Assembly (NCBI GenBank): GCA_023132435.1
Contig: JAGLYF010000239.1
Coordinates: forward strand, 1 to 58,187
Length of the DNA: 58,187 nt
Source of the DNA: Calditrichia bacterium
GTDB taxonomy: Bacteria; Calditrichota; Calditrichia; JAJRVZ01
Direction: 5' to 3'
Every line of letters starts with the position of its first letter. Position 1 is the stretch's first letter. Both the position numbers and the translations under genes were made by a program. Below are positions 37,478 through 56,024 of the stretch, one piece after another. The notes below the pieces were generated by a model. That model was not told the DNA's origin. It did no database searches and worked only from the letters and a program-made list of their open reading frames with translations.

Positions 37478-38482
37478 ATGATGAGTATCCGCGTTGCAAT
37501 AAATGGTTTTGGAAGAATTGGACGCTTAGTATTTAAGGCAGCTCAGTATGATAAAGAAGTTGAAATTATTGCTATAAATGATCTGACCGATGCACATACT
37601 TTGGCTCATTTGTTAAAATATGATTCAGTCCACGGCAGATACCCGGAAAAAGTAGTCTTTGAAGGTGAAAACCTGATTGCAGGTGACCGGAAAGTTAAAG
37701 TTATTGCTGAAAAAGATCCGTCCAAGTTGCCCTGGAATGATATTGGTGTTGATATAGTCGTTGAGGCTACCGGTGTATTCAGAAAAAGGGAACAGCTGGA
37801 AAATCACATTAATCAGGGTGCAAATAAAGTCGTATTGACTGTCCCGGCGAAAGATGAGATTGACAATACAATCGTTCTTGGTGTAAATAATGCTGAATTA
37901 AAAGCTACAGATAAAATTGTTTCAAATGCTTCGTGTACCACCAATTGTCTGGCCCCGGTTGTCAAAGTGTTGCATGATAATTTCGGCCTCGTTAGAGGCT
38001 TTATGACAACAATTCATGGGTACACAAATGATCAACGTCTTCTAGACCTGCCGCATAGTGATTTACGTCGTGCCAGGGCAGCCGCTATCAGTATGATCCC
38101 GACCACCACTGGCGCCGCCCGTGCCGTTGGGAAAGTGATTCCTGAACTTAATGGTAAACTTGATGGTGTGGCGATCAGGGTTCCGGTAAGTGATGGCTCG
38201 ATTATAGATTTAGTAGCGGAAGTAGGAAAAGACGTCTCGGCAGACGATATTAATGCCGCAATGAAGAAAGCGGCTGATGGCGAGATGAAAGGTGTACTTG
38301 AATATTGCGAGGATCCTATTGTGTCAATCGATGTTGTTGGTAATCCTCATTCCAGCGTTTTTGACAGTCTGTCTACCGGTGTAATGGACGGTAATTTTGT
38401 AAAAGTTTTTTCCTGGTACGATAATGAATGGGGTTATTCCTGCCGTACTCTTGATCTGGCCAAATTAATGGCTAAAATTTAA
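37478..38482 (+). CDS. gap: Type I glyceraldehyde-3-phosphate dehydrogenase
   Basis: INGFGRIGR, SNASCTTNCLAP, WYDNEWGYS. Confidence 0.98.
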   Translation: MMSIRVAINGFGRIGRLVFKAAQYDKEVEIIAINDLTDAHTLAHLLKYDSVHGRYPEKVVFEGENLIAGDRKVKVIAEKDPSKLPWNDIGVDIVVEATGVFRKREQLENHINQGANKVVLTVPAKDEIDNTIVLGVNNAELKATDKIVSNASCTTNCLAPVVKVLHDNFGLVRGFMTTIHGYTNDQRLLDLPHSDLRRARAAAISMIPTTTGAARAVGKVIPELNGKLDGVAIRVPVSDGSIIDLVAEVGKDVSADDINAAMKKAADGEMKGVLEYCEDPIVSIDVVGNPHSSVFDSLSTGVMDGNFVKVFSWYDNEWGYSCRTLDLAKLMAKI

Positions 38483-39832: not shown

Positions 39833-40597
39833 ATGCGAAAATTTGTAATAGCCGGTAATTGGAAAATGTATAAAACCAATGCTGAAGCCGAACAATTAAC
39901 TGAAGCGATAAAAGGTAAAACGACATCGATAGAGAAAACACAAATTATTATTTGTCCCCCTGCGACGGCTTTGGAAACTGTCTCTTCGATCGTCAAGGAC
40001 TGTGAAATTGCTGTAGGCGCCCAGAATATGTATTGGGAAAGCCAGGGAGCATTTACCGGGGAAATCTCCAGTGAAATGATCAAATCCACCGGTGCTACCT
40101 ATGTGATCATTGGACATTCGGAGAGAAGACAGTATTTTTACGATACTGATGAAACTGTAAATAAAAAGACATTATACGCTCTGCAAACTAATTTAAATCC
40201 GATTATTTGTATCGGAGAAAGTCTTGAGCAAAGAGAAGAAGGAATAACTAAAGATATTCTCAATGATCAATTAGAAGGTGCTTTAAAGAGTATCTCTGCC
40301 GAACAAATGATCCGGCTAATTATAGCTTATGAACCGATCTGGGCGATTGGAACCGGGAAAACCGCTACGCCTGAACAGGCCCAGGATGTACATGCGTTTA
40401 TCAGGACGAAATTACAGTCACTATTTAATGCGGCAACCAGCAACTCAGTGATCTTGCAATACGGGGGAAGCGTAAAACCGACGAATGCTTACGACCTGCT
40501 AAAACAAAATGATATAGATGGTGCCCTGGTCGGTGGTGCCTGTTTAGAAGCTGAATCCTTTTCAGAAATCATAAAAGCAGCGGAGAGTCTTTCCTAA
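39833..40597 (+). CDS. tpiA: Triose-phosphate isomerase
   Basis: AGNWKM, GHSERR, AYEPIWAIGTG, YGGSV. Confidence 0.98.
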   Translation: MRKFVIAGNWKMYKTNAEAEQLTEAIKGKTTSIEKTQIIICPPATALETVSSIVKDCEIAVGAQNMYWESQGAFTGEISSEMIKSTGATYVIIGHSERRQYFYDTDETVNKKTLYALQTNLNPIICIGESLEQREEGITKDILNDQLEGALKSISAEQMIRLIIAYEPIWAIGTGKTATPEQAQDVHAFIRTKLQSLFNAATSNSVILQYGGSVKPTNAYDLLKQNDIDGALVGGACLEAESFSEIIKAAESLS

Positions 40598-40610
40598 AAG
40601 GCAAAAAATA

Positions 40611-40639
40611 TTGATATAACGTTTATTCATCGTTAAATT
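40611..40639 (+). promoter_or_regulatory. Putative sigma70-type promoter of secG-tRNA
   Basis: TTGATA-17 nt-TAAATT. Confidence 0.45.
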
Positions 40640-40666
40640 TATAAGCTTTAAATAATGGAGATATAA

Positions 40667-41008
40667 ATGTATACGTTTTTGTTAATATTGTTCGTGTTAG
40701 TATGTTTTGCACTGGTGGTTGTAATTCTCCTTCAGGCGGGTAAAGGTCAGGGATTAGCAGGTACATTCGGTGGTCCCGGGGCTGGCGCTGTTTTTGGTGG
40801 AAGGGGAGCTGCAACATTTTTGAGTAAGTCAACAGGTATCCTGGCTACTATTTATCTTGCACTCTGCTTGCTTATCGGGTATGTATACAAATCCCAGAAC
40901 GAAGTGCAAAGAGATAGTTTGATACAGCAGGAGGTACAACAGGAAGCCCCGGTCTCGGCAGTGCCTTTGGCGCCGATTGGAACAACACCCACTGACACAA
41001 CACAATAA
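40667..41008 (+). CDS. secG: Preprotein translocase subunit SecG
   Basis: Two TMs, LLQ.GKG.GL...FGG motif, after tpiA. Confidence 0.95.
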   Translation: MYTFLLILFVLVCFALVVVILLQAGKGQGLAGTFGGPGAGAVFGGRGAATFLSKSTGILATIYLALCLLIGYVYKSQNEVQRDSLIQQEVQQEAPVSAVPLAPIGTTPTDTTQ

Positions 41009-41011
41009 TAA

Positions 41012-41096
41012 GCTGGAGTGGTGGAACCTGGTAGACACGCTATCTTGAGGGGGTAGTGCCCACGCGGGTGTGCGGGTTCAAGTCCCGCCTCCAGCA
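41012..41096 (+). tRNA. tRNA-Leu(GAG)
   Basis: Acceptor stem GCTGGAG/CTCCAGC, anticodon arm CTATC-TTGAGGG-GGTAG, long variable arm, GGTTCAAGTCC T-arm; CCA not encoded. Confidence 0.95.
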
Positions 41097-41101
41097 CTAA
41101 T

Positions 41102-41139
41102 AAAAACAAGGGTTTACAGCAACTGTAAATCCTTTTTTT
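41102..41139 (+). terminator. Hairpin/terminator after tRNA
   Basis: AAGGGTTTACAG-CAA-CTGTAAATCCTT followed by T run. Confidence 0.7.
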
Positions 41140-41162
41140 ATGCCTAAGAACCTACCGTATTT

Positions 41163-41192
41163 TGTGTCCTTTGTGTCCATAAATGTGTCCAT
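41163..41192 (+). repeat. Three TGTGTCC direct repeats, putative integrase arm-type sites
   Basis: TGTGTCC at 41163, 41172 and 41184 between tRNA and integrase. Confidence 0.6.
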
Positions 41193-41366
41193 ACCCATTT
41201 TTAATGAAAATCTTGTGAAAATCGGAACTAAGTAGCGTTTGAAAAGTGTAATGACTGGCTTAAGGAATACAAAATTCCCTTCAGAAATTCCCCTCACTTT
41301 CCTTATTCCGGTATTACTTTATCAAGATATTTTTAATATTCAAACCCATTGAATACGGGAGGTTTT

Positions 41367-42473
41367 ATGGCTTGCTTGGAAAAGCGAAATAAAAATTTAT
41401 ATCGACTTCGCTGGATTGAAAATGGTGAGCGGAAACAAAAAACATTTACGGCGGACAGCTATAAAGATGCTCTGGATAGTAAGCATCAGAAAGAAGAAGA
41501 ATTGCTGAGAATGAAAAGCAGCAATTTGCGATTGACAGAGATTTGGCATTTATATAAGCAAGCCCGACCAAGAAGAAATAATGAGAAACACGAAGAAGCA
41601 TTTATTAAAAGAGCAATTGAATTCTTCTCGGATTGTTTTTTATATGAAATCACGGAAAAATCCATTAACGAATATAAAATATGGTTACTGAAACAGACCA
41701 ATAAAAATTACAAAAAGAAAAAGGTGTTACTGTCTTCAACATATGCCAATGCCTGCCTAAAGAAATTGCAGGCGCTTTGGAATTTTGGCAGACAGCAAAG
41801 ATTAATAAATCGTGAGAACGATATATTTCTTGAATTTAAATTTCCGCCAGAGAACAAAAGGGAATTTGTTTTATCTCCACGAGAATTTAACCATCTATAT
41901 GAAACAACAAAAAATGAAAATCCTCTATATGCTGAATTTATGAAGCTGCTTATCCAAACGGGATGGAGAAGGGGAGAATTAGCGAAATTGCAATGGAAAG
42001 ATATTTATGATAAACACATTGTTCTGCGCAGCACAAAAGGTAAAGGGCAGGATGATTATTATCCATATTTCAGCTTTGTCAAAAGCACATTACAAAGGAT
42101 ATTTAAATTACAGAAGCGACATTCAAAATATATTTGGGCTGATGAAAAGGGCAGGCGTTTAGCCCAAGTAACAATAACCCGAATGGTTTCAAGATATATG
42201 AAAAAAGCAGGCTTTCCTGAAGGAGCAGCACACACTCTGAGGCATTCGTTTGCCACCAATGCACAGGCAAACGGATTAACCATATACGAAGCCAATTTGC
42301 TTTTACGGCAAAGCTCAATAAGAATGACCGAAAGATATACTCACCTAATTCCTGACCAAATTGATGAACGAAAGGTTGATTTCTTGAGGCGAGAAGAACC
42401 GACTTATGATATTAACAATGAAAAATATATGCCATATCCTTTTGCACCAAATATATTCCAGTCGGTAGAATAA
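41367..42473 (+). CDS. Phage-type tyrosine recombinase/integrase
   Basis: TGWRRGEL (R), TKG (K), HTLRHSFA (HxxR), MTERY (Y); SAM-like N-terminal domain; GGAGG before ATG 41367. Confidence 0.92.
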   Translation: MACLEKRNKNLYRLRWIENGERKQKTFTADSYKDALDSKHQKEEELLRMKSSNLRLTEIWHLYKQARPRRNNEKHEEAFIKRAIEFFSDCFLYEITEKSINEYKIWLLKQTNKNYKKKKVLLSSTYANACLKKLQALWNFGRQQRLINRENDIFLEFKFPPENKREFVLSPREFNHLYETTKNENPLYAEFMKLLIQTGWRRGELAKLQWKDIYDKHIVLRSTKGKGQDDYYPYFSFVKSTLQRIFKLQKRHSKYIWADEKGRRLAQVTITRMVSRYMKKAGFPEGAAHTLRHSFATNAQANGLTIYEANLLLRQSSIRMTERYTHLIPDQIDERKVDFLRREEPTYDINNEKYMPYPFAPNIFQSVE

Positions 42474-42528
42474 AAATAACATTTATGTTATACCCCCTAC
42501 TTTAGATCAATAATTTCATCAAGAATAT

Positions 42529-43128
42529 TTGAAATTTGATCCAAATTTTCGGCAAATCCCCGGTCTGTCTCAACCTTATAAATGGAAAAAACCAAAACGA
42601 ATATTTGTAAATTCAATGTCTGATATGTTCCACGATGATATTCCTGATGATTTTATTCAGCAGGTATTTGCCACAATGAATGAAACACCCCAGCATAATT
42701 ACCAAATACTGACCAAACGGTCGCAAAACATGTTAAACCTTTCCAAAGACCTGCTATGGACGGACAACATATGGATGGGCGTCACGGTCGAAAATGCAAA
42801 TTATGTTGACTGTATCGACCACCTTCGCCAGACAAATGCCAACATTAAATTCATTTGTTTTGAACCATTATTGGGCCCAATTAATAATTTAGATTTATCA
42901 GACATAGATTGGGCAATACTTGGCGGTGAATCCGGAATAAACGCACGACCAATGGAGAAAGAATGGGCTATTGATATAAAAAATCAAAGTGTTGGTAATA
43001 GAATACCGTTCTTTTTCAAGCAATGGGGCGGAAGAGACCGCCAGAAAGGCGGCCGAATAATGGAAGGCAGGACATGGGATGAGTATCCCCACGATTACAA
43101 AGCAGAAAAAATAAACGAATTCTTTTGA
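42529..43128 (+). pseudogene. N-terminally truncated DUF5131 (phage Gp37/Gp68) protein
   Basis: IFVNSMSDMFH, QILTKR, NIWMGVTVE, EPLLG, GGESG, FFFKQWGG; the usual WNP..GC...C..C radical-SAM N-terminus is missing and an in-frame TAA lies at 42511. Confidence 0.75.
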
Positions 43129-43279
43129 AAATGATGTCGATTTTTATATTTCCAGCTATTTATAAGTGTGTCATACATTAAATCTAAACCTTAAAACACC
43201 ATTTTAAAACCAGAACATTTAAAATATTTTTATCAAAATACAGCAAAGGATTGGGGCAACCATTGACTTGTTTCATGGC

Positions 43280-43326
43280 AATAGCCGACGGCCTTTTTAT
43301 CCTAATCCTTTCAGCCGTCGGCTATT
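43280..43326. promoter_or_regulatory. 13-bp inverted repeat in polymerase leader
   Basis: AATAGCCGACGGC...GCCGTCGGCTATT just upstream of the RBS. Confidence 0.55.
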
Positions 43327-43346
43327 TGTTTGAACGGAGAAATGCA

Positions 43347-44648
43347 ATGCAGCTTTATTTACCGGAAACGATTGACCTGACAAGAATTGACGACAAGAAG
43401 GCTTTCTTCTGCGATTATATTTATACTTACAGCTTCAGTCATAAAGAACAGCTGGCCGCAAAAAATAATAAAAATGGAATGTCTGGGGATATGATTGATG
43501 GATATAATTTGGGTGATTATAATTTTAAATTTTCTAATTATAGTTGTTCTAATTTAAATTTTTATAATAGCTCTTATTCTAATGTGGTTCATTCAGATCC
43601 AGTCCCCATTTATAGCCAGTATATGCGTTCTATTATTTCTGTTCACGATTACGGACGTGTTAAAACCGAGCTTATAAACGATGGTATAATAACCTGCGAT
43701 TGGTCATATAGCAATTTTGATGGTAATAAGAAAACCATGAGCTATTCATTGGTCGAACCACATTGCTATGCTTCCCCTACCATATATGAAATTCAAGGTA
43801 AACGTTTCATAGATAAATTGCATAGCATTAATCAATACTGGAGAAATAATTTGTCACCTCTGGAGAAAGCATTAGAAGCCAAATTATATGAAATTGAATT
43901 TGACGAAAAGGCTGCACACCAATTTTTACAGACAGAAGAATATGAAACCCCGGCAGCCCGAATAGCCCGTGAAAATACAATAAACATTATGTCCACGAAG
44001 AACCAGCTAAAATATAATTTAAGGCGAAGCCAAAAAGTGGGTCGGATTTTCACACCCGTGACCAGTTCTCCCAAAGACATGCGACAATTTTTTCAATATG
44101 ATGAACCATTGGTTGAAGTTGATATTTCTTGCGCCCTGCCTTTGCTGTTTAACAAATATTTGCTGAATGAAAACGCACCTGATGTTCAATTATACAGATG
44201 GCTAACGAGCGACGAAGGTGAAATTGATTTGTATGAATACTTAGGAACAGAAGTATGGCAAGAAGAATTTCCAATATGGAATGATGAAGTAAGAGACCAT
44301 ATAAAGATTTTAACGATGGTAATATTCTTCGGAAAACAAAATACCATTCGGGATCTACGGAGGAAATTTGAGCAGGAATTTCCAACGGTTAGCCGAGTGA
44401 TGAAAGAATTAAAAAAGAAAAATTATAAAATATTAGCGGAGGTATTAATGAAAGAAGAAAGTAATTTAATAATTGATGAAGTAAGTAAAGAAATACTTGA
44501 GGTCGAACCATATCGGCTATTATTAACAATTCACGACGCAATGATTGTACCTGAATCGTTTAGTGATGATGTGAAAAGGCGAATAATTAAAGCTGTTGAA
44601 AGACGGATAAATTTGACACCGAAGGTGAAAAATAAACGAATCAATTAA
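43347..44648 (+). CDS. Stand-alone family-A/T7-like polymerase palm protein (TV-Pol-like)
   Basis: GRIF, motif A VEVDISCA.P, motif B R.HIK...FFG, motif C LTIHDA; no exonuclease domains; GGAG before ATG 43347. Confidence 0.75.
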   Translation: MQLYLPETIDLTRIDDKKAFFCDYIYTYSFSHKEQLAAKNNKNGMSGDMIDGYNLGDYNFKFSNYSCSNLNFYNSSYSNVVHSDPVPIYSQYMRSIISVHDYGRVKTELINDGIITCDWSYSNFDGNKKTMSYSLVEPHCYASPTIYEIQGKRFIDKLHSINQYWRNNLSPLEKALEAKLYEIEFDEKAAHQFLQTEEYETPAARIARENTINIMSTKNQLKYNLRRSQKVGRIFTPVTSSPKDMRQFFQYDEPLVEVDISCALPLLFNKYLLNENAPDVQLYRWLTSDEGEIDLYEYLGTEVWQEEFPIWNDEVRDHIKILTMVIFFGKQNTIRDLRRKFEQEFPTVSRVMKELKKKNYKILAEVLMKEESNLIIDEVSKEILEVEPYRLLLTIHDAMIVPESFSDDVKRRIIKAVERRINLTPKVKNKRIN

Positions 44649-44699
44649 TGCTCAGTAATTACATGAGGTTAAAAAAATATAAAGGATTAGGAGAAAATT

Positions 44700-45395
44700 A
44701 TGAAACGAGGATTAGTAAGAACAACAAAATTAATTGAGAAATATGCCCCAGAAAGGCATTACAATTTTAATACCTACGACCAATATACAAACATTCAGGT
44801 TTGCAGCTCAAATGCCCTTCCAGAACACAAAAAGGTAAGTCCCATGAAATTGGGGCCCATTATTACCGGTGACCCTGATTTTCCGGAATGCAAAATAATG
44901 GAAAATTATTGGCAGTGGATGAAGGTACATAAATGTGAGGTGATATCATTACCACCGAAGAACAAAAACCTCACAAAATTCTTTAATTATCCCGATTTTG
45001 ATGATTCCCCCAATGAGGAATATTTCCAGAATCGGAAAAAATGGTTTACCACAACAAAGGCTGATTTAGATAGAATGCGAGAAGATAAAAAGAACCGACA
45101 AAATTTTATGTACTGCTGGTATGATGGCCAGAAGATTTATGATTATGTAACATGCCGAAAAGCATTTTACTGCCTTGTATATGCTCAATATGTTCAGGAT
45201 GAAGCAGCATATCAATTAATAAAGCAGCGGTTGGATAGTGGTGAAAATTTATGTTTGACAGGCTGGGACGCTTTTGAATGGTCAGAAGAAGCCGACCCTA
45301 ATTGCGTGGAAATAAAGGAAGTATTAAATGATAAGAATAAAGTATTCGGACATGAAATGGTTCTTGCGTCAATGCTAATGGGGAATCATATTTGA
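44700..45395 (+). CDS. Hypothetical protein, DUF6939/NADAR-like
   Basis: VSP..LGP, MENYWQ..KV, Y...RK..Y...Y, FGH..VLA; AGGAG RBS; family call is tentative. Confidence 0.5.
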   Translation: MKRGLVRTTKLIEKYAPERHYNFNTYDQYTNIQVCSSNALPEHKKVSPMKLGPIITGDPDFPECKIMENYWQWMKVHKCEVISLPPKNKNLTKFFNYPDFDDSPNEEYFQNRKKWFTTTKADLDRMREDKKNRQNFMYCWYDGQKIYDYVTCRKAFYCLVYAQYVQDEAAYQLIKQRLDSGENLCLTGWDAFEWSEEADPNCVEIKEVLNDKNKVFGHEMVLASMLMGNHI

Positions 45396-45401
45396 GAATA
45401 A

Positions 45402-45528
45402 TTGAAAATACGCCAACGTCCACCCATGTTTTAAAAAGTAATACATTCTTACGATTTACGGCAATTGACCGGCACAGGATTGAACGTGTGCCGATTTTGG
45501 CAAAGTCTTGCGGTGAGTTGCAAAGCAA
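45402..45528. repeat. ~127-bp dispersed repeat, copy A
   Basis: Close match to 55898-56024. Confidence 0.85.
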
Positions 45529-45631
45529 ATACCAGCACGAAGTATTGGCTTAGGATGTTGGTAATTTGTGTGTTATTCTGTTTCACGCAACAGTTCTATG
45601 CCTTGTTTCGTTAGGTGATAAAAATTGTAAT

Positions 45632-46117
45632 TCAAAATTGTCCCGGAAATGATTCAGATGTATTAATTATTTTCCAAGCGCCATTACGATATACGTATAG
45701 CGTTGTATATGTACCAATCATCTTTTCCTCAACTCCCGAATTCAACGTCGCATCCCAATCGAATCTCTGAGTAACAATTACCGTATTTCGGTTAATAACG
45801 TCAATATATCGCTCAATTGTCTTTGCCTCAGCTCTTGTGTAAATGACCGTATGTGCTTTGACTGTATCAGAAAAGGCATTCCATGAACGTGCAATAAAGC
45901 CATTAGCGGCAAATGTATATTCCTCACTATTCAGGTAGTAGCCTAAGTATCGATCATATTCTTGATTATTCCATGATTCAAATAGCTCGTTTGATAATCT
46001 TTCAATTTCTTGCCTGATTGCACTTTTTTCGGTTTCTGTTAATAATGCTTCATGGTCTTGACATGAGAATAATGTGGACAAAATTGAGAGAACTACACAA
46101 ATTCTTAATACTATCAT
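45632..46117 (-). CDS. Lipoprotein with NTF2/SnoaL-like domain (gene cassette 1)
   Basis: Lipobox LFSC, C-terminal GAWKII; bounded by GTTAGGT/ACCTAAC core sites; GGAG before ATG 46117. Confidence 0.75.
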   Translation of the reverse strand: MIVLRICVVLSILSTLFSCQDHEALLTETEKSAIRQEIERLSNELFESWNNQEYDRYLGYYLNSEEYTFAANGFIARSWNAFSDTVKAHTVIYTRAEAKTIERYIDVINRNTVIVTQRFDWDATLNSGVEEKMIGTYTTLYVYRNGAWKIINTSESFPGQF

Positions 46118-46483
46118 TTTTCTCTCCACGTTTATACCTAAATTTTTAGCACCTAACATTAATTCGGCGGACGAAACGCCCTGTTATAATAAGTGTAATT
46201 ATAACTGAAATTTATGGTACTTCTTGGAAATATAGTATGCGACATAGCACTTTTAGGCGGAAGTAATGCAATATAAAACCGTGTCATTGGATACAGTCCT
46301 ATAGTAAATGACTATCCAAATCAAAAATATCAAAAAAAACTGTCATGTCAAATAAAAATTTGTCAAAATTAACTGAACGATATATCAAGTAACTATCCCG
46401 AATAAGTCGCCCAACATTGAGATACATTGATAATAATATAAAATAATCATCTGAAAGCAAAGAAAATATTTTAGTTTCGAAAT

Positions 46484-46546
46484 ATAAAAGCGGTTGAAAA
46501 AAGAATTAATTTAACACCGAAGGTGAAGAGTGAAAGGGTAAATTAA
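46484..46546 (+). pseudogene. Remnant 3' end of a second polymerase gene copy
   Basis: Translates IKAVEKRINLTPKVKSERVN* versus IKAVERRINLTPKVKNKRIN* at 44586-44648. Confidence 0.75.
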
Positions 46547-46705
46547 AAGATCAACTTATAGCCGGAAGGTTCCGTTAATTTTCTTTATTTTTTTGACGGC
46601 GACTACTTCAACTAATGAGTCAAAGAACGAAATACGAAAAAATGTAATTTTATCGTAATAGGATACTATTTTCTCTTGACTTTGAAGGACATGTATATGA
46701 TAGAC
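46547..46705. repeat. Inter-cassette ~250-bp repeat, partial copy 1
   Basis: Matches the right part of 48249-48497; ends GGACATGTATATGATAGAC. Confidence 0.8.
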
Positions 46706-47493
46706 TATTTATTTATTTGTTCCCAACCTGATGCTAAAATCCAATGTTCAAATTTTAAGTGTTTTCTTATATTAGTATCAACACGTATTAGCAGACCAAA
46801 ATTATTGTTTTCTTTAATGTATTTAACAATTTTAGGATCAGGTTCCATTAATTTTGGTGTGGAGTGAATTGGTTTAAAACCAATTACATAAATTATTTCA
46901 TCTGATTTATCTTCTAGAAGTTCAACAAACATCCCAATCTTATCCATGACAATTCCAAAAGCGATGGAGCCAGTAAATCTTTCGAGAATAACATGAAGAT
47001 GTTCAAAATTGACATTATTTGTATGGTAATAAAATGATTTTAAATAAATATGAATTAACGAATCATCGATAGATTTAATCTTCGAGCTTTCCCAATCAAC
47101 TGTAAATATAGATTTTATTTTATGGCTTGAGGGGATAACAATATTGTTATCGGTTGAAAATAGAAAATAACCCATTGGATACTTAGTTTTTAAACTGTCA
47201 TAATCTATTATTATGTTAAGGTGCATTCTTTCTAGCATGAAAAGCATTTTGTTCTGTTGTTCAAGAGTCGCAACTTCAGATTGAAGGCTTATTAAGTTCT
47301 CTTGGAGTGAATTAATATATTGATCATTTGAGTATACCACTACGATATTTACTATAACTGCAATGGCGATAACAAACATTAATATTATTCTAGTATTCTT
47401 GTATCGTTTTGTTCTTCTATCGGGCCAAAAATGATCTAAAACAAGTGTTAAAAATGCTATAAAACCAAGAAAGATTGGTAAAAGAATACTCAT
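46705..47493 (-). CDS. Hypothetical membrane protein (gene cassette 2)
   Basis: Two N-terminal TMs and coiled coil; GAGGAG RBS; GTTAGAC core site upstream. Confidence 0.7.
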   Translation of the reverse strand: MSILLPIFLGFIAFLTLVLDHFWPDRRTKRYKNTRIILMFVIAIAVIVNIVVVYSNDQYINSLQENLISLQSEVATLEQQNKMLFMLERMHLNIIIDYDSLKTKYPMGYFLFSTDNNIVIPSSHKIKSIFTVDWESSKIKSIDDSLIHIYLKSFYYHTNNVNFEHLHVILERFTGSIAFGIVMDKIGMFVELLEDKSDEIIYVIGFKPIHSTPKLMEPDPKIVKYIKENNNFGLLIRVDTNIRKHLKFEHWILASGWEQINK

Positions 47494-47511
47494 CTTTTCT
47501 CCTCAAAAAAA

Positions 47512-47740
47512 GTCTAACATATAAGCGAGCGAAATGAATTCTTAAATCAAGGTCAACTTCAGTACAATTAGATTAACTTTTCTGCCATCACTTAACAAGT
47601 ATAATTTATTAATTTTTAATTGATCCGGCGATTTTCTTTAATTTTGAGTGCGACTCAAAGAACAAAACTCAAAAAAATGTAAATTTATCGTGATGGAATA
47701 TTATTTTCTGTTGAGTTAATAAGGCAAATACATGCTATGT
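47512..47740. repeat. Inter-cassette ~250-bp repeat, copy 2
   Basis: Starts GTCTAACATATAAG; aligns with 48249-48497 with a 16-bp internal deletion and a degenerate right end. Confidence 0.85.
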
Positions 47741-47777
47741 ACAATTTTAGATAATATAACCATTTCCAAATATAACT

Positions 47778-48206
47778 TTAATGCAAACGTACACAGCTTA
47801 AAACTTCGTCTTGAGATGTTCTAATATCAAGAATTCTATCTATTTCTACCCCAGAAGAATCGGTTGATAAATTTACTTCAGATTGGGGAGGTAGGGTTTC
47901 TATACAGGCATAACATAATAATTCCGCAGTGACATTATCACAACTAGAATTTATGCGTTCGACTAGTATATTTAAATTTTCTCCGTGACCAAACTTGTCA
48001 CCAGAGATTTTATCAGGATGTAAATCGGAAAGCAATTTTGTGATTTCTGAACAGACAATTTTTGAATCCGTATTAATTATCCCAAGTTGTAGATTATCAC
48101 AATTTGGTTGGTCGAAATCAGTATCGAAAATCTTTTTACATGTTGAAATATAGCAACAGAGAATGAGTGTAATTATGAGTGTCAATTTTTTATTCTGACT
48201 AAACAT
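47778..48206 (-). CDS. Cys-containing putative lipoprotein (gene cassette 3)
   Basis: Signal peptide ending STC, CYACIET.PPQSE motif; GGAGG RBS. Confidence 0.7.
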   Translation of the reverse strand: MFSQNKKLTLIITLILCCYISTCKKIFDTDFDQPNCDNLQLGIINTDSKIVCSEITKLLSDLHPDKISGDKFGHGENLNILVERINSSCDNVTAELLCYACIETLPPQSEVNLSTDSSGVEIDRILDIRTSQDEVLSCVRLH

Positions 48207-48248
48207 AAATCCTCCAAATCACAAAGGACTTTCATCATATCATCATGC

Positions 48249-48497
48249 ACCTAACATATAAGTAAATGAGATGAGTCTTTATATCAAAATCAACCGCATT
48301 ACAATTAGATTAACTTTTCAGATATCATTTCACAAGTAAGTATTTTATAAATTTTCAATTGATCCGCCGATATTCTTTATTTTTGGTGGCGACTAGTTCA
48401 ACTATTGAGTCAAAGAACAAAATAACGAAAAAATTTATTTTATATCGTAATGGAATACTATTTTCTGTTGAGTTTAAAGGACATGTGTATGTTAGGT
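48249..48497. repeat. Inter-cassette 249-bp repeat, complete copy 3, with terminal inverted core sites
   Basis: ACCTAACATA...TATGTTAGGT, 10-bp terminal inverted repeat. Confidence 0.85.
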
Positions 48498-48584
48498 AAA
48501 GTTGCGGACTTATTGCCGCTTGTGATCATTTTTGGCCTTCAAACTTTGGTTTTATTTTAAATAATATACAACTTTTTATGCTCC

Positions 48585-49205
48585 CTAAGAAACTTGCTGT
48601 TTGTATGATTTATAATGACTTAAAAATAGAAAAAGCCATCCCAGCACCAATAATATCATAACGTGTATCGGGCTAGCAGTTGGCGTTCCTTCAAGGGCTT
48701 TCAAGAAAGGTTGGCCAGCTATTCCGCAGATATACCACGCTGCAATCAACATAAACACATAACCAACCAGTTTAAAATCTGCTGCTGTTGCGGACGCATC
48801 CTTCAGAGCCATTCGTTCTTTAGCCCATAACCAGAGTATTCCGAGGAAGAGCAGCAAGATCAAGGTTCCACCGATACCGAACAACGGGGGGATATGTCCT
48901 AAGGATCCAATTGTCATGCCGATAATAATCGCCAGAAATATTCCTATTCCATATTTCCATACCGTCGATCCTTTTGCGCCTGAATAGAGTAATAATCCAA
49001 TCCCGGCTACTAACGCCCCCAGTGGAACCCCGAAAGACCATAACAAAGTCCAAGTTCCCATGAATGCCCACATCGTCTGATTAAGCTCATCCATTGTTAA
49101 ATTTTTGAAAGCCGAACCCACAAAAATCGACCCAATCACCCCCCAGAGAATTGCCCAGATAACGGCTATCCCGAATAGTACCAAGCCAACTTTTTGTTTA
49201 GTCAT
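48585..49205 (-). CDS. Hypothetical multi-pass membrane protein (gene cassette 4)
   Basis: About six TMs, AAGGAGG RBS, minus-strand GTTAGGT at 49312-49318 upstream. Confidence 0.75.
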   Translation of the reverse strand: MTKQKVGLVLFGIAVIWAILWGVIGSIFVGSAFKNLTMDELNQTMWAFMGTWTLLWSFGVPLGALVAGIGLLLYSGAKGSTVWKYGIGIFLAIIIGMTIGSLGHIPPLFGIGGTLILLLFLGILWLWAKERMALKDASATAADFKLVGYVFMLIAAWYICGIAGQPFLKALEGTPTASPIHVMILLVLGWLFLFLSHYKSYKQQVS

Positions 49206-49652
49206 TTTGCTTTCCTCCTTTTATGAAATTAATTATCAACCACGATTGTTATTTTTGTCCTTTTCCTGATAAATAATTTCCGACGGAAAACAGAAAAAGA
49301 TAATTTTGCCCACCTAACAAATAAGTGAGCCGAATGGATACATACATCATTCCAAATTCCATAACTTCTTATACATCACTAAAACTATTACTCGGATAGG
49401 ATTTAATTTTATCGTCTTTGTCAAACAGAATATTAATAATAGAAGCAGTTTTATCAGAACCGAAGGCGACGCAAATGATATTATAAAAATATCCTTTAAA
49501 ATGAAAGTAATTTTGGGAATGTATATGATAAAAATATTATTGCGATTTCTTCGATAGTTAGGTAGCTTCAATTGTACTGTTTCTATATTCTTATTCTGCT
49601 ATTTAATAACATAAGATAACTGGTCTTTCATAGTAAATCAGGCGATCAGACT

Positions 49653-52037
49653 ATGGTAGGCAAAACCATATCACACTACAAGATCATTGAACGCATCGGC
49701 ACCGGTGGCATGGGCATCGTCTATAAAGCCCAAGACCTCAAACTTGATCGTTTCGTCGCTCTTAAATTCTTACCACCACAACTGACCACCAGCGAAGAAG
49801 AGAAACAACGCTTTATTCATGAAGCCAAAGCAGCATCTTCTTTAGACCACAATAACATCTGCGCTATTCATGAAATAGATGAAACTGAGGAAGGGCAGTT
49901 GTTCATCAGCATGGCTTACTATGAAGGCGAAACGTTAGACAAAAAGATTAAAGATAAGCCATTACCGGTTGAAGAGGCAATCGACATCACTATCCAGATA
50001 GCACAGGGTCTTACCAAAGCGCATGAGAAAGAGATTGTGCATCGAGATATTAAACCGGCGAACATCATGCTGACGAAGGAAGGTGTAGTCAAGGTTCTTG
50101 ATTTTGGTTTAGCAAAGCTTTCTACGCAAACAAAGCTGACCAAAGAATCGACCACATTAGGCACTGTTTCTTATATGTCTCCGGAACAGGCGAAAGGCGA
50201 GGAAGTTGATTATAGAACAGATATTTGGTCTTTAGCCGTCATCCTCTATGAGATGCTGACCGGGCAACTTCCTTTTAGAGGCGACTATGAATCTGCTGTT
50301 ATTTATTCCATCCTAAATGATTTGCAGGAGCCAGTCACCGCATTGCGCACTGGTGTGCCGATGGAATTGGAACGCATCGTTAATAAATGTCTTCAAAAGA
50401 GCCCGTCAGATCGGTATCAACATATTGATGAATTGATCGTCGATTTGCGAGGTCTGAGAAGAGAATCTGAGTCAACTATTATTCCATCTAAAGAAGAAAA
50501 ACAAAAGAAGCGTTCTAAATATGTTATCATGTCAGTAGCAGTTTTATCAATTTTAATTCTTATTATCGCTGGATACTTCATTTTGATACAACCGAGTGAA
50601 AAAAGTGTATCAGGCTGGGAAAATTCGATTGCTGTTTTGCCTTTTGCCGATCTGAGTCCCAATAAAGATCAGGAATACTTTTGTGATGGTATGACTGAAC
50701 AGATCATTACAAATCTGAGCAAGATAAATCGGTTAAAAGTAATTGGTCGAACCTCTGTTATGTCATACAAAAACACAGATAAAAAACTGCCTGAGATCGG
50801 GAAAGAATTAAATGTTTCACATATCTTGGAAGGAAGTATCAGGAAATATGGCAATAGTATCAGAGTGACAGCACAGTTAATTAACACAGAAGACGGCTCT
50901 CACATATGGGCGGATGACTTTGATAGGGAATTAGAGCATGTCTTTGAGGTTCAGGACGATATATCTGAAATGATTTCAGGAGTATTGCTACAGAAATTAT
51001 CCGTCGAAGAAATAGGAGAAGTTAAATCCCAAAAACCGCAGAATATTGAAGCTTGGGAATATTATCTGAAAGGAAAATATTTTCATATAAATAAATTTAT
51101 AGATGCAACCGGGAGCATGGATGATTTTAATACATCTGAGCTGATGTTAAAAAAGGCTATTGAACTCGATCCAAATTATGCTCCCTCGTATGCAGCTCTG
51201 GCTGATCTTTATAACTCATATTACAATATTGAGGCACAAAATGAAGATGAGAAGAAAAAATATCTTGATTTACAAGAGAAATATATCGAGACAGCGTATA
51301 ATTTAGATCCCAATTCAGCTGATGTATACTCGATTATGGGATATGTTCATGAGGCAAAAGGTGAACTAAAAAAAGCTTATGAAAGCTTCAAAAAAGCGAT
51401 TTTGATCCAACCCAATTGGTGGGAACCCCATTATTCCTTGGCCGACTTCTATAATAGTCGAGGCCTTTACCATTTAGCTATTAAATACCGTACCAAAGCC
51501 ATAGAATTAAATCCTTTATACCCATCATCTTATGTTAGACGCTCTATTTATTTCTCTTATATAGGAGAACTTAATAAAGCCGAGATAGATTTGCAGAAAG
51601 CTTTGGAGATTAATCCAGATCACCGGACGGCTACTGGTTATTATGGATATATATTGATCTTATTGGAAAAATATGATGAGGCAGAGATAATCATAACAAA
51701 ACGAGAAAAAATTCATCCTAATTCAAGTTCAAATTCACTCCTGAGAGCTTGTTTATCTGCTGCGAAGGGTGAAAGAGTAAAAATGCCTGAGATAAATATT
51801 AGTGCTTTTTATAAGTCCAGACTCTATCTTTTATTAAAAATGAGGGAAGAAGTTATACAGTATTTGAATGAGGATTTTGAGATACTAAAAAAATCAGAAG
51901 GATCAAGATATTTATGGCTGAAGAATCAACCATTATGCGATTTTCTCCGCTCCGACCCCCGCTTCCAAGAAATATTGGCAACACACAAAGAAATTTATGA
52001 AGAGAATTTGGCGAAGTATGGGGATATTGATATATGA
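49653..52037 (+). CDS. Hanks-type Ser/Thr protein kinase with TM, TolB_N-like (SIAVLPF) and TPR domains
   Basis: GTGGMG, VALK, HRDIKPAN, DFG, YMSPEQ; SIAVLPFADLS; TPRs. Confidence 0.93.
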   Translation: MVGKTISHYKIIERIGTGGMGIVYKAQDLKLDRFVALKFLPPQLTTSEEEKQRFIHEAKAASSLDHNNICAIHEIDETEEGQLFISMAYYEGETLDKKIKDKPLPVEEAIDITIQIAQGLTKAHEKEIVHRDIKPANIMLTKEGVVKVLDFGLAKLSTQTKLTKESTTLGTVSYMSPEQAKGEEVDYRTDIWSLAVILYEMLTGQLPFRGDYESAVIYSILNDLQEPVTALRTGVPMELERIVNKCLQKSPSDRYQHIDELIVDLRGLRRESESTIIPSKEEKQKKRSKYVIMSVAVLSILILIIAGYFILIQPSEKSVSGWENSIAVLPFADLSPNKDQEYFCDGMTEQIITNLSKINRLKVIGRTSVMSYKNTDKKLPEIGKELNVSHILEGSIRKYGNSIRVTAQLINTEDGSHIWADDFDRELEHVFEVQDDISEMISGVLLQKLSVEEIGEVKSQKPQNIEAWEYYLKGKYFHINKFIDATGSMDDFNTSELMLKKAIELDPNYAPSYAALADLYNSYYNIEAQNEDEKKKYLDLQEKYIETAYNLDPNSADVYSIMGYVHEAKGELKKAYESFKKAILIQPNWWEPHYSLADFYNSRGLYHLAIKYRTKAIELNPLYPSSYVRRSIYFSYIGELNKAEIDLQKALEINPDHRTATGYYGYILILLEKYDEAEIIITKREKIHPNSSSNSLLRACLSAAKGERVKMPEINISAFYKSRLYLLLKMREEVIQYLNEDFEILKKSEGSRYLWLKNQPLCDFLRSDPRFQEILATHKEIYEENLAKYGDIDI

Positions 52038-54466
52038 TTGGTAAAACCATATCACACTACAAAATCACCGAAAAACTTGGTGGCGGAGGCATGGGTATCG
52101 TTTACAAAGCCGAAGACACCAAGCTTATCAGAACAGTAGCTTTAAAATTCCTACCGCCAGAACTAACCCGTGATCCTGATTCTAAAAAGCGATTCATCCA
52201 TGAGGCACAAGCAGCTTCAGCCCTTCAGCACAATAATATTTGTACAATTCATGATGTAGATGAGACTGAAGATGGACAGTCTTTCATTGTTATGGATTTT
52301 TATGATGGTGAAACACTGAAGAAAAAAATCGAACGAAAACCGTTAGATATTGATGAATCTATAGAAATTTCTATTCAGGTAGCTCAAGGATTAGACAAAG
52401 CTCATAAAAAAGATATAGTACACCGTGATATAAAGCCTGCTAATATTATGATTACCGAAGAGGGTACACCAAAGATAGTAGATTTTGGTTTAGCCAAACT
52501 GACAAGTTTTACACGGTTGACTAAAGAAGGTGTTTCTGTCGGTACTGTTGCTTACATGTCTCCTGAACAGACGAAAAGTGAAGAAGTCGACTCACGAAGT
52601 GATATCTGGTCATTGGGCATCGTTCTTTACGAAATGATCACAGGTCAAATGCCATTCAGAGGAGACTACGATCAGGCAGTTGTTTATGCAATAATTAATG
52701 AAGAACCTGTACCAGTAACGAGTTTGAGAACTGGTGTGCCGTTGGAACTGGAACGAATCATCAATAAGTGTCTGCAAAAAAGCCCGGCTGAAAGGTATCA
52801 ACATGTTGATGAATTGATTGTGGATTTACGCCAAATTAAAGGAGAATCAGAATCAAAATCTTCCCAATCAAATAAAGGTATGGATCTTGAATCTCCAAAG
52901 AAGAGGGAAAAACTTATTAAGTTTTCTGTCATTCTACTATCTATTGTTGTAATCATGGTGGCTGGATATTTTTTCATTGATAGAATTATTCAGACTGAAG
53001 TGCCCGAATTTAAAGCAACTTCTGAAACTCAATGGGAAAATTCTATTGCTGTACTTCCTTTTGCAGATTTAAGTCCAAACAAGGATCAGGAATACTTCTG
53101 CGACGGTATGACCGAACAGATTCTTACCAATCTAAGTAAATTGAATAAATTAAAAGTAACTGCTCGTACATCAGTTAATCAATACCGGAATACTGAAAAA
53201 ACAATACCTGAAATTGGTGATGAGTTGGAAGTAAAAAACATATTGGAAGGCAGTGTATTTAAATATGGCAATAGTGTGAGGATAACGGCTCAATTAGTTA
53301 ATACAAAGGACGGTTCTCATATCTGGGCGGAGATTTATGATCGGGACTTAGCAAATCTCTTTGCAATACTGGATGATGTTTCAAAATCGATAGCTGGTGT
53401 GTTGTTAGAAAAATTATCTGTAAATGAAGTTGAAGAAATTCAGACTAAAAGACCAAGTAATATAGATGCCTATGAATATTACCTTAAGGGTAATTATTTT
53501 CATAATAAATTTTTTTGGGGACAATTTAAAAATGAAGATTTTAATACATCGGAAATGATGTATAAAAAAGCCATCACTCTCGATTCAAACTTTGCTCTCT
53601 CATATGCAGGTTTGGCTGATCTTTATAATACATATTGGAATTACAGAGCACAGTTTGAAGAAGAAAAACAAAAATATCTTGAGTTACAAGAGAAGTATAT
53701 AATAATTGCTTTCAGTTTAGATTCGCTTTCAGCTGATGTAAACGTAGTTAAATACTGGATTCATTTTGCAAAAGCTGAAACAGAAAAGGCGTATGAATGC
53801 ATTAAAAGGGCGCTAAATATTAACTCTAATAATGGTGACTACAATAGAGCATTTGGAAGATTTTTATCTAACATCGGGCTAGCCTACCAATCTATTAATT
53901 ACTATAATAAAACCATAGAATTAGATCCTTTATCAACAATTGCATATATTTCTCGTGGTCAAGCATATTATCAAATTGGGAAATTTATTGATGCGGCGAC
54001 AAATTATCAAAAGGCCTTAGAAATTGATACAAAATCTTATTTAGCCCTTGGTAATTATGCAGAATTATTGATTGCCTTAAAAAACTATGAAAAAGCTGAA
54101 GAATTGTTGATGAGAATTGATGATGAAACAGTTCCTCTTTGTGGATACTGGATAGCTCTGCTTCATGCAGCAAAGGGTGAGAAAGAAGAAGCTCTTAAAA
54201 TTTTGAATGATTTAGATATTTGGAAACATTTGATTCCAAGTATTTATATTCTCTTAGGAATGAATGAAGAGGTTTTTAAGACTCTAGATGAGGGGTATGA
54301 TGAAGCATATGAATGGGATCGTTCTTGGTATCTTCAATTAAAAAATCATCCACTTTATAAGAACCTCCTTACCGACCCCCGCTTCCAAGAAATACTGACA
54401 AAACATAAAAAATTATATGAAAAGAATTTGGCGAAGTACGGTGATATTGAAGCATTAATAAATTAA
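52034..54466 (+). CDS. Hanks-type Ser/Thr protein kinase with TM, TolB_N-like and TPR domains (paralog)
   Basis: Same architecture; ATGA overlap with the first kinase. Confidence 0.93.
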   Translation: MIGKTISHYKITEKLGGGGMGIVYKAEDTKLIRTVALKFLPPELTRDPDSKKRFIHEAQAASALQHNNICTIHDVDETEDGQSFIVMDFYDGETLKKKIERKPLDIDESIEISIQVAQGLDKAHKKDIVHRDIKPANIMITEEGTPKIVDFGLAKLTSFTRLTKEGVSVGTVAYMSPEQTKSEEVDSRSDIWSLGIVLYEMITGQMPFRGDYDQAVVYAIINEEPVPVTSLRTGVPLELERIINKCLQKSPAERYQHVDELIVDLRQIKGESESKSSQSNKGMDLESPKKREKLIKFSVILLSIVVIMVAGYFFIDRIIQTEVPEFKATSETQWENSIAVLPFADLSPNKDQEYFCDGMTEQILTNLSKLNKLKVTARTSVNQYRNTEKTIPEIGDELEVKNILEGSVFKYGNSVRITAQLVNTKDGSHIWAEIYDRDLANLFAILDDVSKSIAGVLLEKLSVNEVEEIQTKRPSNIDAYEYYLKGNYFHNKFFWGQFKNEDFNTSEMMYKKAITLDSNFALSYAGLADLYNTYWNYRAQFEEEKQKYLELQEKYIIIAFSLDSLSADVNVVKYWIHFAKAETEKAYECIKRALNINSNNGDYNRAFGRFLSNIGLAYQSINYYNKTIELDPLSTIAYISRGQAYYQIGKFIDAATNYQKALEIDTKSYLALGNYAELLIALKNYEKAEELLMRIDDETVPLCGYWIALLHAAKGEKEEALKILNDLDIWKHLIPSIYILLGMNEEVFKTLDEGYDEAYEWDRSWYLQLKNHPLYKNLLTDPRFQEILTKHKKLYEKNLAKYGDIEALIN

Positions 54467-55897: not shown

Positions 55898-56024
55898 TTG
55901 AAAATACGCCACTGTCCGCCAATGTTTCAATAAGTAATACATTCTTACAATTTACGGCAATTAAACCGACAGGATTGAAGTGTGTGCCGATTTTGGCAAT
56001 TTCTTGCGGTGAGTGGCGAAGCAA
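55898..56024. repeat. ~127-bp dispersed repeat, copy B
   Basis: Close match to 45402-45528. Confidence 0.85.

Follow-up and report, generated by a model that had tools for sequence, protein, structure and literature searches.

A minimal family-A-type polymerase gene on a tRNA-Leu-associated integrative element of a Calditrichia bacterium: a candidate primase-polymerase

A 58,187-nucleotide contig of a Calditrichia bacterium (GenBank assembly GCA_023132435.1, contig JAGLYF010000239.1; the entire contig is hereafter called the window) carries a 433-amino-acid open reading frame (ORF) that an initial annotation described as a stand-alone relative of family-A DNA polymerases and of the RNA polymerase (RNAP) of phage T7. 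The same annotation placed this ORF on an integrative element and proposed a NADAR-like partner encoded downstream. Genes on the plus strand of the region follow the order pgk, tpiA, secG, tRNA-Leu(GAG), integrase, a DUF5131 ORF, the 433-aa ORF and a 231-aa ORF (Table 1), and a sequence gap (37478-38482) precedes pgk. Further downstream, minus-strand ORFs without assigned function run on to position 49205. The tRNA gene, followed by a tyrosine integrase gene, agrees with the proposed integrative element, and neither helicase nor capsid families were found among the eight ORFs scanned with Pfam, PHROG and NCBIfam between 41349 and 49205, as had been noted for the surroundings of the polymerase.

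The polymerase ORF spans positions 43251-44648 and comprises 465 codons if read from a TTG, or 433 if read from the ATG at 43347. This ATG is the likely start, because the 433-aa form begins with MQLYLPETIDL, which is identical to the starts of homologs P0002 and P0004, and because GGAG lies ~9 nucleotides 5' of it. All three polymerase motifs initially reported were confirmed, namely motif A (D259-ISCALP), motif B (R316-DHI-K320-ILTMVIF-F328-G329) and motif C (TI-H396-D397-A). The reported lack of 5'-nuclease and exonuclease domains also holds, as the protein is only 433 amino acids long and no nuclease family was detected in it or in its neighbours. Its predicted layout consists of a winged-helix-like N-terminal domain (residues ~1-150) with a disordered insert (29-85), a helical segment (150-220), and a palm and fingers part that holds R233, D259 of motif A, R316, K320 and F328 of motif B, and H396-D397 of motif C.

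Nine close homologs, in addition to the gene call of the window itself, were recovered from 5.8 billion proteins. The resulting 10-row alignment shows no variation at D259, R316, D317, K320, F328 and G329, and at least 90% conservation at H396 and D397; one of its rows ends before motif C. An alignment of 59 diverse relatives retains R233, D259, P265, K320, E371, H396 and D397 without exception, including both of the catalytic aspartates (D259 and D397), and R316 belongs to the consensus of these relatives. A profile built from the 10-row alignment retrieved at least 4387 cluster representatives (50% identity) at E≤1e-3, of which 2134 reach E≤1e-10; most of these proteins have 380-560 amino acids and match profile positions ~85-438. 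This very large family has no Pfam model. A Pfam scan of 30 wider relatives left 27 without any family and gave no match to PF00476 (DNA_pol_A), and the window protein itself matched no family at E≤0.1 in Pfam, PHROG, NCBIfam or PADLOC. The family of unknown function phrog_4756 was matched by 32 of the 59 relatives.

When the family was aligned by hhalign with the Pol I domain of the host (its own genome and seven relatives), motifs A, B and C fell in register, albeit with weak support (probability 3.9%, E 0.011). In this register, D259 and L264 lie on the Asp and the Glu of DYSQIELR, respectively, whereas R316, K320, M324 and F328-G329 lie on host Pol I RRKAKEINFGIIYG (RRKAKxxNFGxxYG), and H396-D397 lies on VHDE. 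We take the aligned positions to be Klenow residues D705, E710, R754, K758, F762, Y766 and D882, and T7 RNAP residues D537, G542, M635, Y639 and D812. Accordingly numbered, F328 would presumably occupy the position of Pol I Y766 and T7 RNAP Y639, and L264 that of the Pol I steric-gate residue E710.

An AlphaFold2 (AF2) model built from 10 sequences was of moderate quality (mean pLDDT 61.7, with the motif B region below 50 and residues 29-85 disordered), and strands flank R233 and motif C in this model. All 50 PDB matches listed by Foldseek are family-A polymerases, among them Bst, Klenow, Taq, Pol theta and the apicoplast polymerase; the best has an E-value of 9.1e-3 and a probability of 0.99, and nothing in the PDB was matched at E≤1e-3. 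A comparison with 48161 chains by VIA-align ranked Pol theta first (Z 8.6, rmsd 5.3, 241 residues, covering model residues 168-424) and Klenow second (Z 8.4). A short helical segment occupies the expected place of the thumb. In BFVD, the best Foldseek matches are full-length phage proteins of 400-435 amino acids (E 1.7e-14, TM 0.52), and a 'DNA polymerase' of Rheinheimera phage Barba31A is matched over 419 columns (E 2.9e-5, TM 0.27). Together with the conserved catalytic residues, this palm match to Pol I-type enzymes supports the original assignment of a stand-alone polymerase of the family-A/T7 RNAP kind. For residues 8-150, the aligned structures are winged-helix domains (MarR, ORC/Cdc6, TubR and RPA32C) with Z-scores of 6.6-7.9, a range that VIA-align itself describes as common by chance. 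On the basis of this modelled fold, the N-terminal domain may bind DNA.

The same residues and matches also bear on whether the enzyme could be a single-subunit RNA polymerase or RNA primase that makes primers or transcripts for the element in the manner of T7 RNAP. Motif C of the family reads TIHD[AS], presumably as in T7 RNAP, and M324 stands at what we take to be the M635 position of that enzyme. Sub-threshold matches to PF00940 (T7-type RNA polymerase) occur at motif C in two of the 30 wider relatives (20-21 bits, cut-off 22), one of the 59 relatives matches phrog_2051 ('RNA polymerase'), and VIA-align includes yeast mitochondrial RNAP at Z 6.6. However, the Tyr with which T7 RNAP senses the 2'-OH is replaced by F328, and the steric gate, a Gly in T7 RNAP, is a bulky Leu here and a Gln in the wider family. 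In addition, the top structural matches are all DNA polymerases, and 433 amino acids hold no promoter-recognition modules. An RNA-synthesizing enzyme of this kind is therefore improbable. The polymerase is instead predicted to prefer dNTPs over rNTPs, because F328 is located at the Tyr position and L264 at the steric-gate position, as placed by the motif register only.

Table 1. Features of the integrative element and its flank in the window
Feature	Position	Strand	Evidence or context
secG	40667-41008	+	directly 5' of tRNA-Leu(GAG)
tRNA-Leu, anticodon GAG, integration target	41012-41097	+	ARAGORN; Rfam tRNA 47 bits
Hairpin and T-run, terminator-like, 3' of the tRNA	41103-41139	+	inverted repeat; terminator-like site 41108-41134
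TGTGTCC(ATA/TTT), three close direct copies	41161-41193	+	direct-repeat search
Tyrosine recombinase (integrase), 374 aa	41349-42473	+	PF00589 E 2.2e-19; phrog_1 integrase E 3.8e-40
5'-truncated DUF5131 gene, 199 aa	42529-43128	+	PF07505
Perfect 13-bp inverted repeat AATAGCCGACGGC / GCCGTCGGCTATT	43280-43326	+	20 nt 5' of polymerase start
Minimal family-A-type polymerase (TV-Pol / divPolA2 type), 433 aa	43347-44648	+	
Divergent DUF6939 (NADAR-superfamily-like) protein, 231 aa	44700-45395	+	
Remnant, the final 23 codons of a polymerase copy other than the intact one, ending in …KAVEKRINLTPKVKSERVN and the stop	46478-46546	+	direct repeat

Gene neighbourhoods were surveyed with a profile made from a 15-row sub-alignment, which yielded a wider set of 104 loci (24 bacterial, and 80 viral loci kept of 191 relatives found). 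A profile made from the 10-row close alignment gave no loci when run against genome contigs and viral contigs. The bacterial loci are labelled as Ignavibacteria, Bacteroidota (Rufibacter, Hymenobacter, Flavobacterium and Chitinophagaceae) and Planctomycetota, and many of the viral relatives reside on contigs of 100-570 kb. Of the 24 bacterial loci, 10 carry a tyrosine integrase no more than 3 kb from the polymerase, 10 carry a small HTH_17/AlpA-like gene and three a small conserved gene termed c71 at this distance, such that at least one of these is present in 17. An integrase occurs in just 3 of the 80 viral loci. Linkage to integrases thus recurs among the bacterial relatives, and the polymerase is a backbone gene of small bacterial elements built from an integrase, a small HTH_17 (Xis/AlpA-like) gene and the polymerase. 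The variable genes at bacterial loci include restriction-modification, Mom, PycTM-HD, ArdC, AbiEi, Vsr and NUDIX genes.

Viral loci carry DNA_pol_A nearby in nine instances, directly downstream in seven of them, and also gp32, thymidylate synthase (ThyA) and NUDIX genes. Two further phage genes recur, encoding a ~179-aa protein directly downstream of the polymerase in 31 loci and a ~441-aa protein directly upstream in 19, and neither protein has a Pfam family. Searches by tblastn matched huge uncultured phages and barbaviruses among named phages, and gave no match among plasmids.

Polymerases of this kind have been described before from computational analyses. The TV-Pol (transposon-virus polymerase) proteins are predicted to be primase-polymerases of small mobile elements, and one subset, which has an N-terminal domain, is described as associated with integrases, resolvases or transposases (Iyer, Abhiman & Aravind 2008, PMC2579912). 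As far as the account in that paper extends, the window protein fits its description, in line with the likeness proposed at the outset. Shared features are a minimal family-A core of 400-600 amino acids without a nuclease domain, a conserved Arg before motif A (R233; in TV-Pols it is absolutely conserved and part of a beta-hairpin), the Asp pair (D259 and D397), the RxxxK of the fingers, an occurrence in Bacteroidota, Planctomycetota and phages, and a gene position beside lambda-type integrases. In contrast to the TV-Pols of that account, no D5-like helicase lies near window-type polymerases (24 bacterial loci), and a winged helix is modelled for the N-terminal domain, which in TV-Pol is called 'all-helical'. 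No match at E≤1 was obtained when the family profile was run against the genome of Microcystis phage Ma-LMM01, one of the named hosts of TV-Pol.

Barbaviruses and other phages encode divPolA2, an accessory, divergent PolA (Yutin et al. 2024, PMC11348598), and similarity to it was found at the level of a distant relative. According to the sections of that paper on divPolA2, these proteins share with the window protein a length of ~430 amino acids, an N-terminal globular domain followed by an active-looking palm, the lack of an exonuclease and a variable neighbourhood. Barba19A gp041 is matched by tblastn with 26% identity over 185 residues (232-416; E 6e-3), but it scores only 22 bits against the family profile, mostly at motif C. 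Furthermore, the window gene resides on a bacterial integrative element rather than in a phage equipped with a replicative polymerase of its own. In the literature searched, the term 'divPolA2' was confined to the article by Yutin et al. and the corresponding preprint.

To our knowledge, CcPol-MP is the sole biochemical precedent for a PolA-type primase, and it was reportedly characterized by Bebel et al. in 2020 as the PolA-SSB primase of SCCmec elements. The portions of Rice (2023, PMC10061031) that concern CcPol-MP assign this PolA-SSB primase to SCCmec and further elements of Bacillota, and describe an A-family catalytic domain on an integrative element, as in the window, and primer-independent DNA synthesis shown for CcPol-MP. 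Unlike the window protein, CcPol as described there requires a small OB-fold partner, sits in an operon with a helicase, and retains part of the 3'-5' exonuclease fold in place of a winged-helix-like N-terminal domain. The window has no helicase, and its downstream gene is DUF6939/NADAR-like and optional, being absent from two close loci (L004 and L005).

These comparisons raise the possibility that the protein is a repair or lesion-bypass DNA polymerase, which would extend existing 3' ends, for example in gap filling, and would not prime. Such a role is what the divPolA2 sections of Yutin et al. suggest for that group, in place of replication (PMC11348598), and the barbavirus proteins are related to the window protein both by tblastn and by Foldseek (E 6e-3 and 2.9e-5). 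CcPol by itself only extends primers, as far as is stated in PMC10061031. In phages the polymerase coexists with a regular DNA polymerase, given DNA_pol_A in the nine loci above, and its neighbours in the window (DUF5131 and the NADAR-like gene) are of a DNA-modification type. However, the repeated backbone of integrase, HTH_17 gene and polymerase is hard to account for by repair, because the bacterial elements carry no other replication gene, and the conserved N-terminal DNA-binding-like domain better suits site-specific initiation. We consider a repair function doubtful.

Among 61 related genomes, only that of the window itself carries the polymerase, and 11 metagenome loci hold relatives. 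In L004, the same host flank (tpiA 97% identical) is followed by an integrase and then the polymerase, in the absence of the DUF5131 and 231-aa genes; after the polymerase stop codon the DNA resumes at a match to 45372-45553, which defines a clean indel from 44648 to 45372 relative to the window. L005 likewise lacks the 231-aa gene behind the polymerase. L006 carries a full-length DUF5131 gene, the polymerase and the 231-aa gene, and is colinear with 42566-45632. In L003, a ParB_N-like gene is followed by a 46%-identical 231-aa-type gene and then the polymerase. Relatives that are further removed (36-43% identity) are surrounded by different genes, including an IS3 transposase, ApeA-HEPN, and genes of the CAP12-TIR and UDG-like types. 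The IS3 transposase adjoins the polymerase in L007 (43% identity), where DUF2321, a 682-aa ORF and ApeA-HEPN are also found beside it, and in L011 (43% identity) a CAP12/Pycsar-type TIR protein and an AAA_16 ATPase accompany the relative.

By Nei-Gojobori estimates between the window and close loci, the polymerase is under purifying selection, with a dN/dS ratio of 0.11-0.15; the ratio is 0.18 in the 231-aa gene and 0.10 in the integrase gene. When the window is compared with L004, dS amounts to 0.089 in tpiA, 0.80 in the polymerase gene and 1.34 in the integrase gene, whose product is 77% identical to the L004 integrase at the same site. Because dS of the element greatly exceeds that of tpiA, the element has been exchanged or acquired separately in the two close hosts. 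These values also bear on whether the element is dead and its polymerase gene a non-functional relic. The truncated DUF5131 gene, the missing att repeat and scattered polymerase remnants are consistent with decay; set against them are an intact reading frame, the full complement of catalytic residues and the low dN/dS over a dS of ~0.8, which leave a decaying relic barely credible.

One such remnant lies in the window itself (46478-46546); it is 77% identical to the end of the intact gene (44580-44648) and 91% identical to the end of the L003 polymerase, and L006 carries the same remnant ~2 kb downstream. A longer remnant of the same variant occurs elsewhere in the genome as an 82-aa ORF (C220:8385-8633; L002:1498-1746, minus strand), whose last 57 residues correspond to the C-terminus, from motif C onward, of another polymerase variant. 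This remnant ends like that at 46478-46546 and adjoins copies of the intergenic repeats described below.

The order secG-tRNA-integrase recurs in L004 and in the relative G004. In the latter, which belongs to a related genus, the integrase at the same secG-tRNA-Leu site is in two pieces that are 68-91% identical (L129:3488-4575), suggesting a frameshift or stop, and no polymerase homolog was found anywhere in the genome. Relatives G001 and G003 were considered as possible empty sites, since no integrase lies behind secG-tRNA in them, but the DNA further downstream is unlike that of the window. The TGTGTCC copies between the tRNA and the integrase are possibly arm-type sites of the integrase, and the 13-bp inverted repeat upstream of the polymerase is a candidate operator, origin or 5' hairpin. 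The tRNA was the sole Rfam match over 40500-50000. A scan for sigma-70 promoters is uninformative, because it gave 23 sites when 24.3 were expected.

The 231-aa protein had no Pfam match even at E≤10 and has four close homologs. Its assignment is transitive. In the ESM Atlas it adjoins clusters of DUF6939, which are mostly viral and one of which carries NADAR-DarT1 on 17% of its members. A phylum-wide search for PF22075 found it in one of 86 genomes, in a 228-aa ORF of G023 (27.4 bits, cut-off 27) that is 31% identical to the 231-aa protein (BLASTP E 1e-26). A profile of the 231-aa family retrieved 79 proteins, 77 of which were scanned: 44 matched PF22075, five weakly matched PF22397 (NADAR-DarT1; best E 0.029) and two matched DUF4326. 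By these homologies the protein is classed as a divergent DUF6939 member. Its relatives are encoded by jumbo phages of Erwinia, Dickeya, Klebsiella and Ralstonia, and the DUF6939-type proteins P0172, P0176, P0177 and P0186 are labelled with eukaryotic source names (Naegleria gruberi, N. fowleri, Willaertia magna and Jimgerdemannia flammicorona; E 1e-31 to 1e-39).

A relation to NADAR is at most a lead. Residues E68, N69, K75, R153 and Y161 are invariant in the 77 sequences, and the E-x6-K spacing of E68/K75 equals that of E88 and K95 in the E. coli C7 NADAR, although it was matched by spacing and not by alignment; both E88 and K95 are reported as essential in the consulted part of Schuller et al. 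(2023, PMC11543638). The NADAR superfamily is presented as comprising ADP-ribosyl-DNA glycohydrolases in the relevant parts of PMC11543638 and PMC11125620, and the 231-aa protein might, by extension, hydrolyse ADP-ribosyl-DNA. It resembles NADAR proteins additionally in its length of ~230 amino acids and the frequency of its relatives in large phages. It differs in that its Pfam home, by transitive evidence, is DUF6939, and in that the ORFs scanned at 41349-49205 showed no DarT gene. The protein itself matched neither PF08719 nor PF22397, PF08719 (NADAR) was absent from the 41 related genomes searched, and a search of PDB sequences with the family gave no NADAR and only spurious matches to HU, a de novo TIM and TBP. 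Its AF2 model is poor (pLDDT 37.7).

The gene accompanies the polymerase in three of six close loci and in none of the 104 wider loci. Thus, of the NADAR-like partner originally envisaged, the DUF6939 homology and the E-x6-K spacing stand, whereas a fixed pairing does not, since the gene is absent from L004, L005 and the 104 wider loci and lies upstream of the polymerase in L003. It is an optional accessory gene of some element variants. This pattern also argues against a defence or anti-defence pair, in which the polymerase and the NADAR-like protein would jointly provide immunity or counter it. In favour of such a pair, the window and L006 have both genes side by side, as does L003 in reverse order; distant polymerase homologs lie near the defence genes of L007 (ApeA-HEPN) and L011 (CAP12-TIR and AAA_16); the DUF5131 protein matches PADLOC candidate-system models; and phage NADARs counter DarT1, according to the part of PMC11825919 that addresses them. 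However, the 231-aa gene is missing from L004 and L005 by clean indel, neither protein has a significant PADLOC match (best E 0.054, for the 231-aa protein), and the polymerase is linked to integrases rather than to a fixed effector. Such a pair is very unlikely.

Upstream of the polymerase, the DUF5131 protein is of the phage Gp37/Gp68 type in the radical-SAM superfamily, and DUF5131 is listed as a radical-SAM subgroup in the text available of PMC9477430. The window copy matches PF07505 (E 6e-71) only at profile positions 61-243 of 243, and PADLOC candidate models PDC-M41B/PDC-M30B match it at E 1e-82. It lacks ~60-70 N-terminal residues, including a CxxxxxxCxxC stretch, the Fe-S cysteine motif, and DNA homology to L006 starts only at 42566. 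The 256-aa protein of L006 is full length and has NPITGCTKFSSGCKNCYAE at its start; because this segment is missing in the window, the window gene is 5'-truncated and its product is probably inactive.

DUF5131 genes lie near DUF6939 genes in four of seven contexts (the window, L006, G023 and the viral locus L143, but not L003, L141 or L142), with ~1 kb between them at most in L143. In G023 (L015:1366-2791), the 228-aa DUF6939 gene overlaps a full-length 250-aa DUF5131 gene by 14 nucleotides, which looks like an operon. At L037:6001-8192, a distant polymerase relative (26% identity to the survey query) is followed directly by a DUF5131 homolog, and this is a second, independent polymerase-DUF5131 adjacency. 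In the literature searched, 'DUF6939' occurs in no paper and 'DUF5131' in one. The proximity of DUF6939 and DUF5131 in G023 and L143, their flanking of the polymerase in the window and L006, and the adjacency in L037 hint at a recurring three-gene DNA-protection module, an idea that we regard as a long shot. In such a module, the NADAR-like enzyme, with or without its radical-SAM partner, would strip ADP-ribose or bulky adducts from the single-stranded DNA replication intermediates of the element, leaving a cleaned template on which the winged-helix polymerase would prime anew. If so, small elements and phages could replicate in hosts with DarT-like DNA-modifying toxins.

Taken as a whole, we favour, with a probability of roughly 0.6, the interpretation that the 433-aa protein is an intact minimal polymerase of the family-A/T7 RNAP superfamily that serves as the primase-polymerase of its element, and that the flanking genes are cargo. 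We infer the priming function by analogy with the TV-Pol prediction and with CcPol-MP, to the extent that these are laid out in PMC2579912 and PMC10061031. The element would excise, and the N-terminal domain would bind the element's own DNA. The polymerase domain would then start and extend a short DNA chain without a pre-existing primer, and the primed small circle would be handed to the host replisome. The DUF5131 and DUF6939 proteins would be cargo that may act on modified or ADP-ribosylated DNA.

Several results weigh against this primase-polymerase interpretation. The window protein does not reach the threshold of PF00476, phmmer and hmmsearch runs against PDB sequences returned nothing with it, and the hhalign support, the AF2 model and the winged-helix scores have the weaknesses given above. 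No helicase is found within four genes of the polymerase in any of the 24 bacterial loci, and the named TV-Pols are tied to replication through D5-like helicases, in the account of Iyer et al. (PMC2579912). A direct-repeat search of 40900-50000 revealed no att repeat, nor did the 3' end of the tRNA and the 23 nucleotides behind it, used as queries with up to three mismatches, find a second copy; the right end of the element is not delimited for this reason. Repeat searches identified neither an origin nor iterons. The literature searched contains no biochemical study of any member of this branch, and the repair role suggested by Yutin et al. also counts here.

Behind the 231-aa gene, 45396-45632 is a composite of two short repeats with six matches in the genome; one half recurs at 55898-56024 (87%), the other on C299 and C220 (~90%), and L004, L005 and L006 likewise carry the composite behind their polymerase genes. 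Four minus-strand ORFs without assigned function (175, 262, 142 and 206 aa) occupy 45632-49205 in DNA of low GC content (0.29-0.30 at 46-48 kb). Between the last three of these ORFs lies a conserved ~224-nucleotide intergenic module (46617-46702, 47514-47737 and 48251-48494), which matches eight places in the genome (on C156, C299, C220, C302 and C77) and the metagenome locus L012. This layout at 45.6-49.2 kb looks cassette-like. Integron cassettes were considered and rejected, as the best integron integrase in the genome scores 86.7 bits versus a cut-off of 265, and only one of the three repeat copies folds better than shuffled sequences. Further downstream (49653-54466), two paralogous genes of 794 and 810 aa, each encoding a Ser/Thr kinase plus TPR, overlap by 4 nucleotides and match the same region of G001.

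Polymerases of the kind found here already have computational descriptions, under the names TV-Pol (2008) and divPolA2 (2024), and the locus adds an example and a new set of neighbours. DUF5131 and DUF6939 are both frequent in jumbo phages and have no assigned function, and their co-travel provides an initial foothold for studying them. On widespread tiny elements made up of an integrase, an HTH gene and a polymerase, the polymerase is the only replication-type gene. If a single protein indeed recognizes the DNA of the element and starts chains on it, this would be the simplest known replication initiator-primase, and CcPol-MP would no longer be the sole precedent for a family-A enzyme that primes.

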